DNA of 64,000 nt from Candidatus Poribacteria bacterium (GTDB taxonomy: Bacteria; Poribacteria; WGA-4E; WGA-3G): positions 291 through 64,290 of the forward strand of contig JAPOZO010000005.1 of the NCBI GenBank assembly GCA_026706025.1, in the 5' to 3' direction. Below, one piece after another: positions 11,650 to 27,023 of the stretch (position 1 is its first letter; every line of letters begins with the position of its first letter). Made by a program: the position numbers and the translations under genes. A model generated the notes under the pieces. The model saw only the letters and a program-made list of their open reading frames with translations. It searched no databases and was not told the origin of the DNA.

Positions 11650-13599
11650 ATGAAAATCAAGGTGTTTTTGGGTCTGATGTTCTTGATTTCTTCAATGTGT
11701 TTGTATGTGTCCGACACGACTGCTGAATATGAACCCTATACGCAACTCGGCTTACCCGAAAGTGCTAAAACGCGCCTCAATAAGGGACAGGTACGTGAAA
11801 TTGCGTATTCCCCGGATAGCACGCTTCTTGCGGTAGCGAGCAGCATCGGTATTTGGATCTATGATGCACAAACCGGTGAAGAACGCAATTTGCTCACGGG
11901 GCATCTGGGGCCGGTCAATAGTGTGGCATTTAGCCCGGATGGAAAAACACTCGCAAGTGGAAGTAGGGACAAGACTCTCCGTTTATGGGATGTCAGCACT
12001 GGCAATCCCATACGCACACTCACAGAGCATCTGGGGCCGGTCAATAGTGTGGTGTTTAGCCCGGATGGGAAAACACTCGCAAGTGGGAGTAAGGATAAAA
12101 CCGTCCGTTTATGGGAGGTCAGCACTGGCAAGCCCATGCGGACACTCATAGGCAATACGACGAGTCCTGTCTATATCTATAGCGTAGCGTTTAGTCCTGA
12201 TGGACAGACGCTCGCAAGTGGGAGTGATGACAAGACTATCCGTCTATGGGATGTCAGCACTGGCAATCTCATACGCACACTCACAGGGCATACGGATGTG
12301 GTTTGGCGCATGGCGTTTAGCTCAGATGGAAAAACACTCGCAAGCGGGAGTAGGGACAAGACTATCCGTTTATGGGATGTCAACACTGGCAATCCCATAC
12401 GCACACTACTCATAGGGTATACGGATACGGATGCGGTTTTGAGCATGGCGTTTAGTCCAGATGGAAAAACACTCGCAAGCGGGAGTAGGGACAGGACTAT
12501 CCGTTATGGAAAAACACTCGCAAGCGGAAATTTTGACCATACTATCCGTTTATGGGATGTCAACACTAACCATCCCATACGCATACTCAGAGGGCATACG
12601 GATGTGGTTTTGAGCATGGCGTTTAGCCCAGATGGAAAAACACTCGCAAGCGGGAGTGGGGACAAGACTATCCGTTTATGGGATGTGGATACTGGCAATC
12701 TCATACGCACACTCACAGGGCATGGGGGTGTGGTCTGGAGCGTATCCTTCAGTCCAGATGGAAAAACACTCGCAAGCGGGAGTTATAAGGAAATCCGTTT
12801 ACGGGATGTCAGCACTGGCACCGCCCTACGCACACTCACAACGGATGCGGTCAAAAGTGTGGCGTTTAGCCCGGATGGACAGACGCTCGCAAGCGGAGGT
12901 TTTGGCAAGAATGGTATCCGTTTATGGGAGGTCAGCACTGGCAATCTTCTGCACAGCCTTCCCTCCACAGGGATCCAGAGTGTGTCGTTCAGTCCAGATG
13001 GGCAAACACTCGCAAGTGGGACTTATCAGGAAATCCGTTTATGGGAGGTCAGCACTGGCAAGCCCATACGTACACTCATAGGGCATGGGGATGTGGTCTG
13101 GAGCGTGGCGTTTAGCCCAGATGAAAAAACAATCGCAAGCGGGAGCGGGGATAAGACCATCCGTTTATGGGACGCGAACACAGGTAATCTCATACGCACA
13201 CTCACAGGACATACTCATCCCATACGCACACTCACAGGGTATACGCGGGCTGTCAGGAGCGTGGCGTTTAGCCCAGATGGAAAAACAATCGCAAGCGGGA
13301 GTGGAGACACGGCTATCCGTTTATGGGATGTGAACACAGGTAATCTCGTCCGCACACTCACAGGGCATACGAATGCAGTCTATAGCGTGGCGTTTAGCCC
13401 AGATGGACAGACGCTCGCAAGTGGGAGCGGGGACAATACCATCCGTTTATGGGAGGTCAGCACTGGCAAGCCCATACGCACATTCACAGGGCATACAGAT
13501 GCAGTCTGGAGCGTGGTGTTTAGCCCGGATAGTGGTACCCTCTCGAGTGGGAGTAGCGACGGCACGATATTCTTGTGGACACTCGCACGGGCAGACTAA
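11650..13599 (+). CDS. Secreted WD40-repeat beta-propeller protein (about 14 WD repeats)
   Basis: The RBS AAGAGG precedes the start. There is a signal peptide (MKIKVFLGLMFLISSMCLYVS) and reiterated units FSPDGKTLASGS.DKTIRLWDVSTG. Strong DNA-level repeats produce many spurious antisense ORFs. Confidence 0.9.
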   Translation: MKIKVFLGLMFLISSMCLYVSDTTAEYEPYTQLGLPESAKTRLNKGQVREIAYSPDSTLLAVASSIGIWIYDAQTGEERNLLTGHLGPVNSVAFSPDGKTLASGSRDKTLRLWDVSTGNPIRTLTEHLGPVNSVVFSPDGKTLASGSKDKTVRLWEVSTGKPMRTLIGNTTSPVYIYSVAFSPDGQTLASGSDDKTIRLWDVSTGNLIRTLTGHTDVVWRMAFSSDGKTLASGSRDKTIRLWDVNTGNPIRTLLIGYTDTDAVLSMAFSPDGKTLASGSRDRTIRYGKTLASGNFDHTIRLWDVNTNHPIRILRGHTDVVLSMAFSPDGKTLASGSGDKTIRLWDVDTGNLIRTLTGHGGVVWSVSFSPDGKTLASGSYKEIRLRDVSTGTALRTLTTDAVKSVAFSPDGQTLASGGFGKNGIRLWEVSTGNLLHSLPSTGIQSVSFSPDGQTLASGTYQEIRLWEVSTGKPIRTLIGHGDVVWSVAFSPDEKTIASGSGDKTIRLWDANTGNLIRTLTGHTHPIRTLTGYTRAVRSVAFSPDGKTIASGSGDTAIRLWDVNTGNLVRTLTGHTNAVYSVAFSPDGQTLASGSGDNTIRLWEVSTGKPIRTFTGHTDAVWSVVFSPDSGTLSSGSSDGTIFLWTLARAD

Positions 13600-13812: not shown

Positions 13813-15354
13813 GTGAATTTAAATACTGTTCATATACTTGATACTGGCACAGAACTGTTTGTTGACGACGCGCTGATCGCTTCCAAACACGGCGTGACGC
13901 GCACACTGCATCAGTGCGTAAAGCATGATGTTTCTGTTCTTAAACCTGACCCCGACAATCTGTGGGAACACGGTGGACCGGATCAGTCCAGACGTGTACA
14001 CCTCTACGGGACTACACTATACGATGCTGCGTACGGAAAATACCGTATGTGGTACATGTGTCGTATGGGACCGCATTGGCGGTTTGAAGCGAATGAGATT
14101 CCGGGACTTTACGTGCCACGTCCTGACCGAAACCCGTCAACATATAGGGGACAGACCCACGATGCTTACGGGCGGAAATTTGTTGAAAATGATCGCGGTG
14201 ACCTTACCTGCTATGCGGAGAGCGATGATGGATTGACATGGACGAAACCGAATCTTGGTCTGTTTGAATTTAACGGAAACCCAAATAACAACATTGTGTG
14301 GGACCTCCACGGTGCGTGCGTCTTCCGTGATGATGATGAATCGGATCCACAGAGACGGTATAAGATGATCGGTTTTTGCAGACGGTACCGTAACATCTTC
14401 TTGCTCATGTCACCCGATGGGATCCGATGGGACGATTCAGATTACCTTGAACCAATTGCGGATCGGGATAACGAAGGTGCGTTCAACGTCATCTACGATA
14501 AAAAAACAGACCTGTTCCGTGCGTATGCCTTGATACGTGGGAACGATAAAGACGCAAGGCGTATGATCGCATACACTGAAAGTCCACGTCTTGAGGGACC
14601 TTGGAAACCGCTCGAACCGATGTTCGGTGCAGCGGATGCGGACGACGCAGTGGGTGTGCAGCGATACGGTGCCGATCGCGCTGAAATCCACAATATGTCG
14701 GGCTTCCTTTATCATAACATTTACATCGGCATCCCCGGCGTGTTATATGTGACAGGACCCGGTGCGGCAGAACATGAAATCCCTGTTGATGGACCGATTG
14801 ACGCGCAACTTGTTTGCAGCCGAGACGGGTTCAATTGGGACTATCCAGACGGGATTCGGACCCCGATTATCCCGCGCGGTGAAAGCGGTACATTCGACAC
14901 CGGTATGATTATGGGAACCGCCATCGAACCGATCATTACCGACGATGAAATTCACTGGTACTATACAGGGACAGAACACACCCACGGGGCGCAGATGAAG
15001 GATCGGCACAAGGAGATCGGACTTGCGAAGTGGCGATTAGACGGCTTCGTCTCGCTTGATGCAGATGCAGATGATGGTATCGTTGAAACCGTCCCGTTAC
15101 AGATTCCGGACGGCGGATTTGAAATTAATGCCGATGCGAGCGGAGGCCAGGTCAAAGTTGAAGTGCTAACGGCTGAAGGACAGGTTCAACCCGGATTTTC
15201 GGTTGATGACTGCGTTCCGTTGACAAGTGATAATATCCGACACGCGGTGCGATGGAAATCAACTACGGTGGCAAATGCTACACAGCCGCTACGACTCCGT
15301 TTTGTGCTGAACCGTGCCAAACTATATGCTTTCCGAGTAGGGATAAACTCCTGA
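13813..15354 (+). CDS. Conserved hypothetical protein (513 aa), possibly a beta-propeller glycoside-hydrolase-like fold
   Basis: The start is GTG with RBS GAGGAA. The ORF is long and uninterrupted with W/Y/G-rich motifs (HWYYTGTEH, GFNWDYPDG). I could not assign a family from sequence alone. Confidence 0.4.
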   Translation: MNLNTVHILDTGTELFVDDALIASKHGVTRTLHQCVKHDVSVLKPDPDNLWEHGGPDQSRRVHLYGTTLYDAAYGKYRMWYMCRMGPHWRFEANEIPGLYVPRPDRNPSTYRGQTHDAYGRKFVENDRGDLTCYAESDDGLTWTKPNLGLFEFNGNPNNNIVWDLHGACVFRDDDESDPQRRYKMIGFCRRYRNIFLLMSPDGIRWDDSDYLEPIADRDNEGAFNVIYDKKTDLFRAYALIRGNDKDARRMIAYTESPRLEGPWKPLEPMFGAADADDAVGVQRYGADRAEIHNMSGFLYHNIYIGIPGVLYVTGPGAAEHEIPVDGPIDAQLVCSRDGFNWDYPDGIRTPIIPRGESGTFDTGMIMGTAIEPIITDDEIHWYYTGTEHTHGAQMKDRHKEIGLAKWRLDGFVSLDADADDGIVETVPLQIPDGGFEINADASGGQVKVEVLTAEGQVQPGFSVDDCVPLTSDNIRHAVRWKSTTVANATQPLRLRFVLNRAKLYAFRVGINS

Positions 15355-15398
15355 TACCGAATTAAATAGCTTGAACTTCCTCGCCAAAGGAGAACTAA

Positions 15399-16538
15399 AT
15401 GGATACCTTATCGACACACGACGGCTCCCCGGAAAATCGTGTGGACAACTTGTTGAAGCTGGAAATACTTGAAGCGTTTGACCGGACTGCGTTTGAGCGC
15501 GATGGATATTGGGTGTGGGAAGGGATACTCACGGATGCTGCCCGTAAGCAGTGGACAACCAGCTTACAGAAGTTACAACAGATGAACGATGCGATCCTCA
15601 TGGATACGGAGTGGCGTGCTATCGACTTTGAGGCGCGGGGGTTTCCGCAGCCTTTGCCAGAACAAATTGCACCGACGTTTTTGGCGGCGTGCTGCGGGGG
15701 TTCAGAGCAAATGCCCAGTTTCCTCAGAACCGCTGAGTTGCGTCAATATATGCATACCCAGGGACTGTTCGGACCGGGCAACGCGTTGGTCACACATGGG
15801 TTCAAGTCACAAGGTGTCATGCCGGAATACTTTCCTGCCGGATACGACGACTTTATAATGGACGTGACATCCGCTCATCCGCAGATGATGGCACTCTTCA
15901 GGAAACTTTTCGGAGACCGATTTATACTCGATCACTGCTTCATGCTCAACCGGGCACCGGGTTCAAAAGGACGCCGGTGGCATGCACACCAGTATCGGGA
16001 GGGACAATACGAAGTTGAGGACCCGATTGGGACTGGACACGCCCTTACCACTGATTTCCTACAACGGCAGTGTATTCGGACGTTGTGCTATCCAGAAGGG
16101 GCAATTATCAAGGATGGCGGCGAACTTGCGATTATCCCCGGTGCACATCTCTATCGGATTCCGTACAAATGGAGCACGGAACGACCCGATGATGACGCTG
16201 CCATGAAAGCGGGCTGGCTGAAAGGCAAAGTCCACGCCTTCACAGGGAAGCCGTTGGAAATCGTACATCTCTCACTACCGCCTGGAAGCATGGTTTCGTT
16301 TGTCCATCATATGCCGCATTATGTTGGCTATCGGAAGCCAAGGATGCCGACCCGGTGGGGACTGCTTATGGCGTATCGAACGCCTGACCCAGAAGCAGAG
16401 CCAGCCAAATGGACAAATGGGATTCCGACCCATTGGGTGGAACAGGCCGCGGACCAAGGAAAACTACCCACTGCGGCACAGCGTGTATTTGAGGCAGATA
16501 ATCCCCTCGATATGCACTCACAGAGTCGTAACGAATAA
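15399..16538 (+). CDS. Putative Fe(II)/2-oxoglutarate dioxygenase superfamily protein (PhyH-like)
   Basis: The RBS AAAGGAG precedes the start. The segment GELAIIPGAHLYRIP resembles the PhyH xxGxLxVxPGSH strand, and upstream histidines (WHAHQY) are present. This is a weak assignment. Confidence 0.4.
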   Translation: MDTLSTHDGSPENRVDNLLKLEILEAFDRTAFERDGYWVWEGILTDAARKQWTTSLQKLQQMNDAILMDTEWRAIDFEARGFPQPLPEQIAPTFLAACCGGSEQMPSFLRTAELRQYMHTQGLFGPGNALVTHGFKSQGVMPEYFPAGYDDFIMDVTSAHPQMMALFRKLFGDRFILDHCFMLNRAPGSKGRRWHAHQYREGQYEVEDPIGTGHALTTDFLQRQCIRTLCYPEGAIIKDGGELAIIPGAHLYRIPYKWSTERPDDDAAMKAGWLKGKVHAFTGKPLEIVHLSLPPGSMVSFVHHMPHYVGYRKPRMPTRWGLLMAYRTPDPEAEPAKWTNGIPTHWVEQAADQGKLPTAAQRVFEADNPLDMHSQSRNE

Positions 16539-16715
16539 GATTACCTTATTGGGAGGTCCCACCTCACGGTAGAAACCGGAAGATTTCGGGTCCGGTGTTT
16601 CCGTAGGCAAGACGTTCCACTTTACCCGTCTTTACTCCAAAAGCCCATTTTCCTTGTACCATTGGGCGTTTGGATACAAAGCCATAATGGATACCTCTAA
16701 TTTTATTCTCCAGAG

Positions 16716-19700
16716 TTACTGTCCGACATCTGGATCCAGTTCCTTAGCCTTCTCAAAATCTGCTTTTGCGGCTTCCTTCTGCCCAAGTGCCTCTTTCGCA
16801 CGCCCGCGATCGTAGTAAGTTTCTGCAGACTCTGGGTTTATCTCAATGGCTTTATCAAAATCTGTGATTGCGCCTTCCACGTCACCGAGAGCCAACTTTG
16901 CGAGGCCCCGACCGCTATAAGCCTCGGCATCCCCTGGAGCGAGCTTGATGACGTGTGTCCAGTCCTCAATTGCCTCTGCCAAGAGATCTTGTGCCTTTTC
17001 CGCATTCCCCCGAGCGGCCTGAAATTCGCCAAGGCTGAACCGCTGCTTCGCACGAGTGATGTAATCAGGGAGATTTTCCGGGTTGAGCACTTTCGCTTTT
17101 TCAAAGTCAGTTTTTGCGGCTTTATAGAACGTTTGTGCCTTCTCCGTATTGCCACGGGCAGATTCCAAATCACCAAGGTCATCATATAAAACCCCGCGAT
17201 TGTTGTAGACACTGGCATACTTTGGATCTATCTGGATAACCTTATCGTAGTCGGCTATCGCCGTTTCATAAAACGCTTCTGCCTTCTCCGTATTGCCACG
17301 GGCAAATTCCAAACCACCAAGATTGTAGTGTGCCACACCGCGATTATTATAGGCATTGGCATGCTCCGGGGCGAGTTGGATAGCCTCATCATAGTCAGCT
17401 ATCGCCGTCTCATAAAACGCTTCTGCTTTCTCCGTATTGCCACGGGCAGATTCCAAATCACCGAGGCCGTCATATAAAACCCCGCGATTGTTGTAGACAC
17501 CAGTAGACTCTGGATCTATCTGGATAACCTTATCATAGTCAACTATCGCCGCTTTATAGAACGCTTCTGCCTTCTCCGTATTGCCACGGGCAGATTCCAA
17601 ATCACCAAGACTATAGTGTGACACACCGCGATTGTTGTAAACATCAATAGACTCTGGATCTATCTGGATAGCTTTATCATAGTCGGCTATCGCCGCCTCA
17701 TAGAACGCTTCTGCCTTCTCCGTATTGCCACGGGCAGATTCCAAATCACCAAGGTCGTCATATAAAACCCCGCGACTGTTGTAGACACCAGTAGACTTTG
17801 GGGCCAGTTGGATAACCTTATCGTAGTCGGCTATCGCCGCTTTATAGAACGTTTGTGCCTTCTCCGTATTGCCACGGGCAGATTCCAAATCACCAAGGTC
17901 ATCATATAAAACCCCGCGATTGTTGTAGGCATCAGTATGTTCTGGATCAATCTTGATAGCTTTATCATAATCAACTATCGCCGCTTCGTTATTGCCAAGT
18001 TTGGACTTCGCTAATCCGAGATCGAAATAAATATTGAAAATTCCATCATTTATTTTTACGGCTTTATCATAATCGGCTATCGCTGCTTCATAGTTGCCAA
18101 GGGCAAATTGAGCGTCTCCGCGTTTGTAGTAAGGATAAAAAAATTGAGCGTTTATTTTTATGCCTTTATCAAAATTGGCTATCGCTTCATGGTAGTCATT
18201 CGCATTATATTTCATCTGTCCCTGAACGAATAATGCATACGCACGGATAAGTTCTCGCTGCTGCCATTTCGCTAAAGGTTCTGTTGCCTCCGACTGCCCA
18301 AGTAATGCCTTGAGTATACTTGAGGGGATAGCGTAACCGTAATGCTCATTTCCAGCAGCATTAATCCCTACGACTTGTCCACCACTACTACTTAGCACAG
18401 GGCTCCCACTACCGCCACTACCAATATAAGGGGTCATCCGGAGCCATTCATCACCATTGGAAGTACTACATATCGTTCCTTTGATGACTCTGTATCTTTT
18501 GTCAGGGTATCCCACCGCAACAACAGGTTCACCGCTTTGAATAGTTTCACTGTCACCGAGAGATAGCGGGATGCCTTCACCCGCAATCTTTAGGATGACG
18601 AGATCATTTTCCGCATCAAAAGCAGTGACTCCCTCAACAGCCAAGATTTTCGTTTTACCTCTAAGTTTGACGAAAACAGGACCGGGTTGGGCTACAACAT
18701 GGACATTGGTTGCCACCTTGTCTTCCTTCACAAAGAAGCCGCTACCACTATAAAAGCCACCAGCCCAACTCATCACACGGACTGTAGAATCCTTGGCTTT
18801 TTCGGATGTTAAATCCGCTGCTGACTCGTTAACATCCTCCGGATTGCTTAGTTGGATGTATTCATCGTAATCAGTGATGCCGTCGTGATACCACCCCTGC
18901 GCTTTCCCAGCATCACCGCGTGCGGACTCAATATCGCCAAGTTTACATTTTACTGTTGCCTGATTCTCATAAGCCTCAGTATATTTTGGATTAATCTCAA
19001 TAGCTTGTCTATAGTCCGAAATCGCCGATTCATATAACGCTTCTGTTCTCTCCGTATTTCCGCGGGAGGATTCTAATTTACCAAAGGCAGACTTCGCCAG
19101 TCCTCGATTGTTGTAAGTATTAGCACCCTCTGGATCAATCGTGATAGCGTGTATATAGTCTTCAATCGCCGATTCATACAAATACTGTGCTTCTTTGGCA
19201 TTCTCGCGGGCAGCTTCGGATTCGCCAAGCCTGAACTTCATCAATCCCCGATCATTGTAGGCGGAGTCATCCTCTGGATTTACCTTGATGACTTGCGTAA
19301 AATCTTCAATCGCCGATTCATATAACGCTTCTGTTTTCTCAGGATTGCCGTGGTCCGATTCTAATTTACCAAGGGCCAACCTCACGCCACCACGATTACG
19401 ATAGAAACCAACATCCTCTGGATTTACGTTGATGGCTTGCGTAAAATCTTCAATCGCTGTTTTATACAAACGCTCCGCTTCTTTAGTATTCCCACGTGCG
19501 TTCTCGGATTCGCCAAACTTGAATTTTGCGGTTCCACGATTGTTGTAGATAGTCGCATCCTCTGCCTCAATCTGGATCGCCCTATTGAAATCAAGTATTG
19601 CCCCTTCAAAGTCGTCAAGAGATGCCTTGGCGGCACCGCGAAAATTATAGGTATGGGCATACTCTGGATCCACCTGGATCGCTTTATCGCAATCGGCTAT

Positions 19701-20765
19701 CGCCGCTTCATATAAACGCTGTGCTTTCTCAGCATTCCCGCGTGCAGATTCAGACTCTCCCAATCTACATTTTATACCACCTCGATTGCTATAAGCATCG
19801 GCATACTGAGCGTCAAGTTCAATGGCTTTATCAAGATCAACAATTGCATCAGTATAGTCACCAAGGTGTGCCTTCACGCTCCCACGGAGGAAGTAAGCAT
19901 CAGGGGCATCCGGATCTATTTTAATAACTCGCGTACAGGAAGCAATCGCGCTGTCATAGTTCCCAAGATGATCTTGAGTTCTTCCGCGCTCGTAGTAGGC
20001 ACGGACATACGCGGGGTTAAACGCAATCGCTTTATCAAAGTCAACGAGCGCGCCCGCATAATCTTTGGCACCGAATTTTTCTTTCCCTAAACCGTAGTAC
20101 GCCGCAGCGCGAATCTGTTCTCGTTGCTGCCATTCCGTCAAAGGTTCCATTGGTATAGGCTCAGCAAGTAACGCCGCAAGCACGCTTGAAGAAATTGTGT
20201 AATCACCATACGGCACAATAACCCCGATGACTTGACCCTTATTGTTAAACACTGGACTGCCATTAGTTTTTTTAGCAGTTGTTGTATTTAACCTGAGCCA
20301 CCTATCATTTTTTAGGATGCTTTGTATACGACTTTCCGAAACCTTGAATGCTCCATTAGGATAACCGGAGATAGAAACAGACTCACCAATTTGAACCCTA
20401 TCCGCCAAAGGCAGTGGCTTGCCTTTATTTCCAAGTTTTAGAATAACAAGGCTGTTTTTCGCATCAAATCCAACAACACCTTCTATCGTCCAATCTTTCT
20501 CTTTGTCGGGAGATTTTACGGAAACAGAACCAATGTGAGCGACGACGTGAGTGCTCGTCGCAACCATGTCCGGTGCAATGAAGAATCCTGTTCCAGATGC
20601 GTTTTCACTCTCAATCAATACAATAGAATCTCTGATTTTTTCGGACGTTAAGTCCGCAGTCGGTGCGACGGGTTTCTCGGAAACCACCTGCTGCGGTGCC
20701 TGTGCACAAGAGATGAAAAAACTTAAGACCAAAAAAAGAAATAAAAATTTGGTGTTTCGTTTCAT
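16716..20765 (-). CDS. Lipoprotein with two trypsin-like serine protease domains and about 28 TPR repeats (1349 aa); fourth gene of the tandem array
   Basis: A lipobox (FFISC) is present. Domain 1 retains the catalytic His (ATSTHVV), but its Ser motif is KKTNGSPV instead of GxSGGP. Domain 2 at aa 640-800 has TNVHVV / NDLVILK / GSGGSGSPV. TPR units ending ...Y.NRG... are repeated many times. The C-terminus ends DPDVGQ, like the paralogs. Confidence 0.85.
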   Translation of the reverse strand: MKRNTKFLFLFLVLSFFISCAQAPQQVVSEKPVAPTADLTSEKIRDSIVLIESENASGTGFFIAPDMVATSTHVVAHIGSVSVKSPDKEKDWTIEGVVGFDAKNSLVILKLGNKGKPLPLADRVQIGESVSISGYPNGAFKVSESRIQSILKNDRWLRLNTTTAKKTNGSPVFNNKGQVIGVIVPYGDYTISSSVLAALLAEPIPMEPLTEWQQREQIRAAAYYGLGKEKFGAKDYAGALVDFDKAIAFNPAYVRAYYERGRTQDHLGNYDSAIASCTRVIKIDPDAPDAYFLRGSVKAHLGDYTDAIVDLDKAIELDAQYADAYSNRGGIKCRLGESESARGNAEKAQRLYEAAIADCDKAIQVDPEYAHTYNFRGAAKASLDDFEGAILDFNRAIQIEAEDATIYNNRGTAKFKFGESENARGNTKEAERLYKTAIEDFTQAINVNPEDVGFYRNRGGVRLALGKLESDHGNPEKTEALYESAIEDFTQVIKVNPEDDSAYNDRGLMKFRLGESEAARENAKEAQYLYESAIEDYIHAITIDPEGANTYNNRGLAKSAFGKLESSRGNTERTEALYESAISDYRQAIEINPKYTEAYENQATVKCKLGDIESARGDAGKAQGWYHDGITDYDEYIQLSNPEDVNESAADLTSEKAKDSTVRVMSWAGGFYSGSGFFVKEDKVATNVHVVAQPGPVFVKLRGKTKILAVEGVTAFDAENDLVILKIAGEGIPLSLGDSETIQSGEPVVAVGYPDKRYRVIKGTICSTSNGDEWLRMTPYIGSGGSGSPVLSSSGGQVVGINAAGNEHYGYAIPSSILKALLGQSEATEPLAKWQQRELIRAYALFVQGQMKYNANDYHEAIANFDKGIKINAQFFYPYYKRGDAQFALGNYEAAIADYDKAVKINDGIFNIYFDLGLAKSKLGNNEAAIVDYDKAIKIDPEHTDAYNNRGVLYDDLGDLESARGNTEKAQTFYKAAIADYDKVIQLAPKSTGVYNSRGVLYDDLGDLESARGNTEKAEAFYEAAIADYDKAIQIDPESIDVYNNRGVSHYSLGDLESARGNTEKAEAFYKAAIVDYDKVIQIDPESTGVYNNRGVLYDGLGDLESARGNTEKAEAFYETAIADYDEAIQLAPEHANAYNNRGVAHYNLGGLEFARGNTEKAEAFYETAIADYDKVIQIDPKYASVYNNRGVLYDDLGDLESARGNTEKAQTFYKAAKTDFEKAKVLNPENLPDYITRAKQRFSLGEFQAARGNAEKAQDLLAEAIEDWTHVIKLAPGDAEAYSGRGLAKLALGDVEGAITDFDKAIEINPESAETYYDRGRAKEALGQKEAAKADFEKAKELDPDVGQ

Positions 20766-26800: not shown

Positions 26801-27023
26801 GAAAATATCCCTCTTATTTTTAAGTCTCGGTTTCAACACGCGTCTTGCCAACTATTATAACCCACATCCGTTGTCTCGTCAAGTTTTTGGAAATTGTAAA
26901 ACTGAAATACAGCTATTCATTTTTATCTTTAGTTGTGAACCTCTTCGCTTTTTTTAAAGAAATATGAATTTTTCAGAAATCTGAAGGTTAAATGTTTTAG
27001 TGTCAATAGAAATCATAAAAATT

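Follow-up and report, generated by a model that had tools for sequence, protein, structure and literature searches.

A variable gene slot in Candidatus Poribacteria encoding predicted exported trypsin-like proteases fused to tetratricopeptide repeats

What might four adjacent genes, each fusing a trypsin-like protease to tetratricopeptide repeats (TPRs), do in a poribacterial cell, and does the lamin-tail-domain (LTD) gene that precedes them belong to the same system? The genes lie on a stretch of 64,000 nucleotides (nt) from a Candidatus Poribacteria bacterium (assembly GCA_026706025.1, contig JAPOZO010000005.1, positions 291 to 64,290), referred to below as the window. We favor, with a probability of roughly 0.6, the reading that they encode extracytoplasmic HtrA-type proteases in which TPRs take the place of the PDZ domain and the choice of targets falls to the diversified TPR arrays. 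The gene family itself is real and well defined; an initial annotation of the locus had generalized the catalytic triad too far and overstated the link to the LTD gene. Its suggestion of a symbiont agrees with the origin of the DNA, Candidatus Poribacteria from sponge or coral metagenomes.

The five genes are co-oriented on the minus strand, and their coordinates and sizes, as first annotated, match the list of open reading frames (ORFs) exactly. In the order of transcription, with protein lengths in amino acids (aa), they are:

25682..26800, minus strand: LTD gene, 372 aa from the ATG at 26800, the ORF extending to a TTG at 26851; assigned by Pfam
24024..25559, minus strand: 511-aa protease-TPR gene; assigned by Pfam, domain alignment and lipobox pattern
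23003..23992, minus strand: 329-aa minimal protease-TPR gene, with signal peptide, protease, linker and three canonical TPRs
20797..22974, minus strand: 725-aa two-module gene with a TTG start; assigned by Pfam, domain alignment and lipobox pattern
16716..20765, minus strand: 1349-aa two-module gene; assigned by Pfam, domain alignment and lipobox pattern

The ATG at 26800 is the start used by gene callers for the LTD gene and gives a normal signal peptide.

Protease domains, repeats and array structure

All four downstream proteins contain Trypsin_2 in Pfam (E 1e-21 to 3e-41) together with multiple TPR families scoring far over their cutoffs, which bears out their description as four paralogs of an S1 protease fused to TPRs. 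The internal duplication proposed for the two largest is likewise visible, as the 725- and 1349-aa proteins carry two Trypsin_2 stretches apiece. TPRs follow each protease domain in the former, and long TPR arrays follow both domains in the latter. The 511-aa protein possesses an intact HtrA-like protease at aa 22–205 (His64, Asp96, Ser161) and the 329-aa protein one at aa 31–215 (His77, Asp109, Ser175). The domains of the two-module proteins are:

22324..22881, minus strand: 725-aa protein, domain 1 (aa 32–217), Asp replaced (His74, Ser106, Ser172)
21475..22044, minus strand: 725-aa protein, domain 2 (aa 311–500), intact (His359, Asp391, Ser456)
20139..20675, minus strand: 1349-aa protein, domain 1 (aa 31–209), pseudoprotease (His73, Ser105, Asn168)
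18273..18836, minus strand: 1349-aa protein, domain 2 (aa 644–831), intact (His689, Asp721, Ser786)

When the six domains are aligned, His is kept in 6/6. Domain 1 of both large proteins reads KNSLV for NDLV, exchanging Asp for Ser, and in the 1349-aa protein the nucleophile Ser of domain 1 is replaced by Asn as well (KTNGSP). The His-Asp-Ser triad initially ascribed to every domain therefore stands for four of the six and fails for the N-terminal domains of the 725-aa (His-Ser-Ser) and 1349-aa (His-Ser-Asn) proteins. Judged by these residues, the window encodes four putatively active domains, one without the catalytic Asp (725-aa domain 1) and one clear pseudoprotease (1349-aa domain 1).

The protease half finds its best PDB sequence matches in HTRA1, HTRA2, DegP and MucD (1e-14 to 1e-8), and a chymotrypsin-fold domain with closest similarity to the HtrA family places it in S1C. 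No PDZ domain occurs among the Pfam and NCBIfam hits of the four proteins, nor among the families listed for 64 relatives, and the NCBIfam scores of the window proteins for DegP, HtrA and MarP are far under the cutoffs. The initial annotation had named ubiquitous housekeeping HtrA proteases as a possible trivial explanation; the missing PDZ domain and the lineage-specific expansion described below argue against it.

Between the protease and the first TPR lies a linker of the form EP(L/I)..W..R..IRAY. The 329-aa protein carries it as EPI..W..R..IRAY, and its orthologs vary little or not at all at E213, W218, R221, I224 and R225. An AlphaFold monomer model places paired helices at aa 222–323; it was built from a 119-sequence alignment, a 23-sequence alignment having given a poor model (predicted local distance difference test score, pLDDT, 63.5).

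Beyond the canonical repeats, the arrays contain an extended unit of 48 aa, in which 14 inserted residues separate helices A and B of an otherwise canonical TPR. Four such units occur in the 511-aa protein (aa 248–439), and the 1349-aa gene contains a longer run, with the insert LESARGNTEKAEAF:

17079..17942, minus strand: six in-register 48-aa (144-nt) extended TPR units, aa 942–1229 of the 1349-aa protein; found by Tandem Repeats Finder (TRF)

TRF reports a period of 144, 6.0 copies and 80% matches, with individual copies up to 92% alike, and the run looks like a recent tandem amplification. A hidden Markov model of the unit recovers 343 complete copies in 95/149 family proteins, making it a family trait rather than a peculiarity of this locus. 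Within the unit, framework residues are conserved, and six of the eight highest-entropy positions coincide with canonical TPR positions 2, 5, 9, 12, 13 and 34, which are concave and ligand-contacting (Magliery and Regan, PMC1261162). Variability at these positions supports a diversified binding surface, and because variation within the repeat is greatest on its concave face, the TPR groove probably binds a ligand.

Three NCBIfam models, MamA (200.6 bits vs. a cutoff of 200), Ycf3 and PilW, exceed their cutoffs in the 1349-aa protein; these assignments were rejected as an artefact of summed TPR scores. Long arrays can in this way mimic membership in an 'equivalog' family, which is an annotation trap.

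Export was called from sequence patterns (lipobox, signal-peptidase I) rather than by a SignalP-type prediction. A PROSITE PS51257-type lipobox is present in the 1349-aa (…FFISC), 725-aa (…FFISC) and 511-aa (…VLFSC) proteins. The 329-aa protein has a signal peptide with Gly at residue 20, in the lipobox Cys position (LFSGAR), and does not match the lipoprotein pattern, so that the original wording 'lipoprotein or signal peptide' suits all four. The ortholog consensus of the 329-aa protein retains the Cys (…LLLSCARTPQQ), and Gly is also found in a few relatives (L011, L012); the exchange suggests that a lipid-anchored protein has become a soluble exported one.

The ends of the proteins are less alike than first described. 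The termini of the 725- and 1349-aa proteins, called nearly identical, agree at 62/74 positions (84%) over the N-terminal 75 aa and at 102/120 (85%) over the C-terminal 120 aa. The motif DP(D/N)VG(Q/E) does end all four window proteins, as had been noted, and an exact-type match is found in only 39/145 family members. We rejected it as a sorting signal: it is the DP turn usual in a TPR, here in the final repeat, and varies across the family.

Intergenic gaps among the four protease genes measure 28–31 nt, and the gap between the LTD gene and the 511-aa gene is 122 nt. Two short elements lie at the ends of the array:

26854..26882, minus strand: promoter-like site TTGACG-17-TATAAT (11/12 matches), upstream of the LTD gene; found by consensus scan
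16683..16715, minus strand: relic spacer with ribosome-binding site (CTCTGGAGAATAAAATTAGAGGTATCCATT followed by ATG), directly after the 1349-aa stop; only a 17-codon ORF follows (MALYPNAQWYKENGLLE, then a stop)

The scan placed a promoter-like site upstream of the LTD gene only; such sites are no more numerous in the region than shuffled sequence would lead one to expect, so this one serves as a lead only. No convincing internal terminators were found in the five-gene run. From the short gaps, the position of the promoter-like site and the lack of a convincing terminator, the five genes are probably co-transcribed, the site upstream of the LTD gene being a candidate start.

Near-identical copies of one spacer, ribosome-binding site included, precede the 329-aa gene and the 1349-aa gene, and the recurrence of the spacer plus ATG after the 1349-aa stop marks spacer and gene together as the unit of tandem duplication. 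The segment at 16683–16715 looks like the stump of a further paralog, lost or truncated. Reconstructed from these sequences, the array arose by duplication of the spacer-plus-gene unit, followed by expansion of the 144-nt TPR repeat.

A poribacterial family and its variable slot

A scan of one genome per species yielded 170 relatives, and the results given here cover the best 77 of the 170 loci. All 77 belong to Candidatus Poribacteria, a single genome contributing at most four of them, and the closest named relatives of the 329-aa protein are Candidatus Poribacteria too. An exact copy of the 329-aa protein is encoded on a 144-kb metagenome scaffold and in an SRA assembly. With the protease domain alone as query, a profile-free search gave 117 clusters at 50% identity (E ≤ 1e-30). 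Down to E 1e-26, the 150 highest-ranking representatives at 50% identity are still family-like, and at the weaker end of the listed matches the named ones are poribacterial; TPRs were found in 56/64 proteins taken from that end.

The species loci supplied 145 family ORFs: 109 with a single protease domain, 35 with two and one with three. Intact His-Asp-Ser residues are present in 101/107 single-domain proteins. Among the two-domain proteins the C-terminal domain is intact in 35/35 and the N-terminal domain in 4/35; loss of the N-terminal triad in 31/35 points to a degenerate first domain as a conserved design and not as decay. Two-module members thus share the layout pseudoprotease-TPR-active protease-TPR, activity being predicted.

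As for export, 88 of the 145 members match a PROSITE-type lipobox and 21 more a signal-peptidase I pattern, and several of the remaining sequences have visible signal peptides. A sub-group found in tandem triplets (L038, L040, L046, L068), and also at L035 and L060, has short polar or basic N-termini (MRKRKTRNNKNRSL…, MADTKSG…) without a signal peptide; these proteins are presumably cytoplasmic and sit in tandem clusters of their own. Taken together, the family is large and fast-changing, its closest relatives are all poribacterial, and most of its members are predicted to be exported.

The fifth gene of the window indeed encodes an LTD protein, as first annotated. Pfam PF00932 scores over its gathering threshold (42.6–42.7 bits vs. 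a cutoff of 34.3) at aa 33–129 of the 372-aa form, and the remainder matches no known family. Orthologs are 53–100% identical, all named ones coming from Candidatus Poribacteria. The protein does not match the lipobox pattern, and no C-terminal sorting domain was found in it: LTD is the only match in Pfam (E ≤ 5) and NCBIfam (E ≤ 0.01), and a PDB search returned nothing. A 21-nt tandem duplication (26010–26051, 2 copies, 95% matches) encodes LPVELSN/LPVELSK in the domain-less region.

The array occupies a slot between conserved flanking genes:

27348..29501, plus strand: CBM9_1/DUF5916 protein, 717 aa, divergent flank and left slot border, 75–95% identity across species
13813..16538, plus strand: 513-aa and 379-aa proteins, convergent flank and right slot border, 86–96% identity across species

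Both proteins of the convergent flank (513 aa, 13813–15354, plus strand; 379 aa, 15399–16538, plus strand) are highly conserved and have no Pfam match. In relatives, the slot lies between the CBM9/DUF5916 gene and the 513-aa gene, the latter not always accompanied by the 379-aa gene. Its content differs by species, from 0 to 7 protease domains, with or without an LTD gene:

LTD gene with 2–7 protease domains: for example L004–L007, L015–L017, L022, L070, L089, L090
proteases without an LTD gene: L050, L059, L065, L066, L071, L074, L075, L082, L083 (at least nine species)
LTD remnant only, beside a protease gene: L084
LTD gene without a protease: L088

An LTD gene directly precedes a protease-TPR gene in about 20 fetched loci, down to 59–60% LTD identity. 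Among the loci examined outside the slot, no protease-TPR gene has an LTD gene adjacent to it. The co-conservation expected of one LTD-protease system is accordingly weak, each component occurring in the slot without the other. Given slots without LTD in at least nine species, a slot without a protease (L088) and LTD-less loci elsewhere, the LTD gene is a frequent neighbor and not an obligate partner.

Compared in the same genome pairs, LTD proteins are 70–78% identical, 329-aa orthologs 75–83% and the products of flanking genes 87–95%, so that LTD and protease genes diverge faster than their flanks. In some relatives, genes for transposases (DDE_5/DDE_Tnp_1, IS1595) and for a TnpB-like protein (OrfB_IS605/Cas12f1-like TNB) lie in or beside the slot (L006 1435–2778 and 5272–6483; L004 1–113), which fits a rearrangement hot spot. 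A retropepsin-like gene of 137–154 aa (Asp_protease_2, gag-asp_proteas) is found by the slot at L006 13624–14037, L088 5769–6182 and L089 4337–4801; it is not in the window.

Paralogs of the CBM9/DUF5916 protein (27–31% identity) occur within a few kb of protease-TPR genes at the non-syntenic loci L008/L032 (same contig), L023, L024 and L047. An association between DUF5916 and protease-TPR genes may therefore extend beyond the window slot; no paper on DUF5916 was found. Just past the slot flank, a gene at 11650–13599 (plus strand) encodes a 649-aa protein with about 12 WD40 repeats, of the eukaryote-like type typical of Poribacteria. The rest of the window, with this WD40 protein, ABC exporters and the CBM9/DUF5916 protein, is consistent with Poribacteria.

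What the proteins may do

Under the reading of HtrA-type proteases guided by TPRs, the proteins would first be exported, three of the four window proteins as lipoproteins. The TPR array would act as the target-selecting module, taking over the role that PDZ has in HtrA; its concave face would probably bind a peptide or a partner protein and present it to the active protease next to it. The N-terminal domain, catalytically dead, would be retained as a binding or regulatory module, turnover of paralogs and repeats would diversify the target range, and the LTD gene, co-transcribed upstream, would be a slot neighbor and not a required component. Possible targets are envelope proteins of the cell itself and proteins of the host or the environment.

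Several points weigh against this reading. Some 15–20 of the 145 family members have no signal peptide of any kind, so the family is not uniformly extracytoplasmic. The restriction to Poribacteria rests on the best 77–150 matches, and cyanobacterial proteins of the same architecture exist. Variability of concave positions is general to TPRs and would indicate repeats of the ligand-binding type, not which ligand they bind. Finally, the proposed operon is drawn from spacing and one consensus promoter match, and such matches are no commoner than chance.

Where the targets are to be sought is the question on which two doubtful alternatives divide. One is envelope housekeeping or regulated self-proteolysis, the proteins being fused equivalents of NlpI-Prc, LbcA-CtpA or BepA that degrade the cell's own cell-wall hydrolases or misassembled outer-membrane proteins. 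The design of lipoprotein anchor, TPR and periplasmic-type protease fits this, as do sub-threshold NCBIfam similarities to NlpI, MarP and DegP, the CBM9/DUF5916 gene that accompanies protease-TPR genes at the slot and, as a 27–31% paralog, at other loci, and one solitary member among glycine-cleavage genes, an ordinary core-genome setting. Yet housekeeping genes are usually single-copy and conserved, whereas here many paralogs occur per genome, with 0–7 domains at one locus, and the family diverges faster than its neighbors and shows recent repeat amplification; moreover, the protease class is S1C, and not S41 or M48 as in the known systems.

We regard the other alternative with similar doubt: host-directed or nutrient-acquiring proteases, surface-bound or released, whose eukaryote-like TPRs bind sponge proteins (matrix, phagocytic machinery) for the protease to cleave. 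It can appeal to the sponge- or coral-associated life of Poribacteria, to an expanded, fast-evolving and copy-number-variable family of the kind typical of interaction genes, to the adjoining LTD gene, which is also fast-evolving and predicted to be secreted, and to the same architecture in a cyanobacterium, Hormoscilla sp. Hormoscilla is a sponge-symbiont genus. On the other hand, the free-living-type Oscillatoria shares the architecture, signal peptides are missing from part of the family, and NCBIfam and Pfam revealed neither a secretion-system nor a sorting signal, leaving nothing that would locate the proteins outside the periplasm. Among the eukaryote-like repeats of Poribacteria, TPRs rank first in frequency, and a host-interaction role has been proposed for the proteins carrying them, protease fusions not being mentioned (Kamke et al., PMC3909097); that proposal favors host-directed proteases as well. 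A bolder version, which we consider unlikely, is a hypervariable repertoire of exported TPR-guided proteases in which paralog recombination and amplification of the 48-residue unit continually adjust which proteins, of the host (sponge) or foreign, are bound and cleaved, the N-terminal pseudoprotease acting as bait or allosteric partner. Were it true, a sizeable share of the 'TPR eukaryote-like proteins' of sponge symbionts would be proteases, providing a testable enzymatic readout for repeat function.

That LTD and protease genes form one dedicated system, an operon of interdependent parts, seems improbable to us. In favor of it, all five genes run in one direction, the LTD gene alone has a promoter-like site before it, the LTD gene directly precedes a protease-TPR gene in about 20 fetched loci, and many LTD and protease homologs lie on contigs of equal size, short ones included; set against this are the nine loci with proteases only, the LTD remnant (L084), the slot with LTD only (L088) and the uniformly LTD-less protease-TPR loci outside the slot. 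An intracellular conflict or anti-phage module, with a trypsin-TPR effector as in Avs1 or reverse transcriptase (RT)-protease systems, is very improbable. It was prompted by domain-level PADLOC/NCBIfam matches to RT-Protease_XI (E 4e-33), Avs1b (about 1e-9) and LmuA, which span the protease domain only; no NTPase, reverse transcriptase or other defense partner lies in the locus, and the window proteins bear signal peptides or lipoboxes. We rejected the defense reading for the window genes on account of these export signals and the missing STAND NTPase and reverse-transcriptase partner domains.

The TPR-guided protease reading would give a more definite shape to a familiar group of proteins. 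Sponge symbionts are characterized by eukaryote-like proteins rich in TPRs, of which Poribacteria have the highest number (PMC3909097), and the function of these proteins is still largely speculative. If a large, fast-evolving subset of poribacterial TPR proteins consists of exported serine proteases, as predicted here, a vague label is turned into concrete experiments; the family would also offer a natural example of HtrA-type proteases in which TPR has replaced PDZ as the recognition module. The work is descriptive and comparative, the domains are familiar, the architecture is already named in databases and present in cyanobacteria, and the LTD link is weak. Within these limits, it should be useful for sponge-symbiosis biology and for the study of protease modularity.

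Comparison with known systems

The fusion of protease and TPRs, initially called an uncommon combination, is neither rare nor new: it makes up a large poribacterial family, the NCBI name 'tetratricopeptide repeat-containing serine protease family protein' is already in use, and colinear proteins occur in cyanobacteria. The accompanying statement that no characterized homolog comes to mind holds: we found neither a characterized homolog nor a publication on the fusion or a solved structure of it. With the TPR array as query, we recovered two cyanobacterial proteins named 'serine protease' and likewise uncharacterized, P0480 (Oscillatoria sp. SIO1A7) and P0407 (Hormoscilla sp. GM102CHS1). Like the window proteins, both have a signal peptide, an S1 protease and a TPR array in the same order, and P0480 aligns with the 511-aa protein end to end (30% identity, E 8e-46). 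Their TPRs are of the canonical 34-residue type, and the alignment has gaps where the poribacterial repeats carry the 14-residue insert. P0407 retains the His and Asp motifs and lacks the nucleophile Ser (…TTYRGPVLD), so degenerate protease-TPR proteins occur outside Poribacteria too.

Among characterized proteases, HtrA, DegP, DegQ and DegS (MEROPS S1C) are closest; they give the best sequence and structure matches and share the fold, the order of catalytic residues and, as predicted for the window family, an extracytoplasmic location. Unlike the HtrA family, the window family has no PDZ domain, attaches a TPR array through its own linker, contains many lipoproteins, has expanded into paralogs and includes two-module members with a pseudoprotease-plus-protease layout.

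NlpI-Prc and LbcA-CtpA each pair a TPR lipoprotein adaptor with a separate periplasmic C-terminal processing protease of class S41, the TPR part selecting the substrates. The window proteins resemble them in coupling a lipoprotein-anchored TPR to a periplasmic-type protease, and differ in doing so within one polypeptide and with an S1C protease; the NlpI model scores 125 bits vs. a cutoff of 250, and no S41 gene is listed in the locus. BepA (YfgC), a single-copy housekeeping gene product, is a periplasmic M48 zinc metalloprotease (HExxH) with a C-terminal TPR for contacts with partners. It likewise fuses a periplasmic protease to a TPR domain, although it is a metalloprotease and not a serine protease, and the four window proteins have no Peptidase_M48 hit in Pfam.

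For the pseudoproteases of the window, structural precedents are provided by the degenerate S1C-like domains of MamO and RsgI9, in which an HtrA-like domain is retained for a non-catalytic role. Their partner domains and biology are unrelated to those of the window proteins, MamO serving in magnetosome formation and RsgI9 being an anti-sigma factor. Against all these relatives, what is distinctive here is the poribacterial expansion, the 48-residue unit and the layout of pseudoprotease plus protease.

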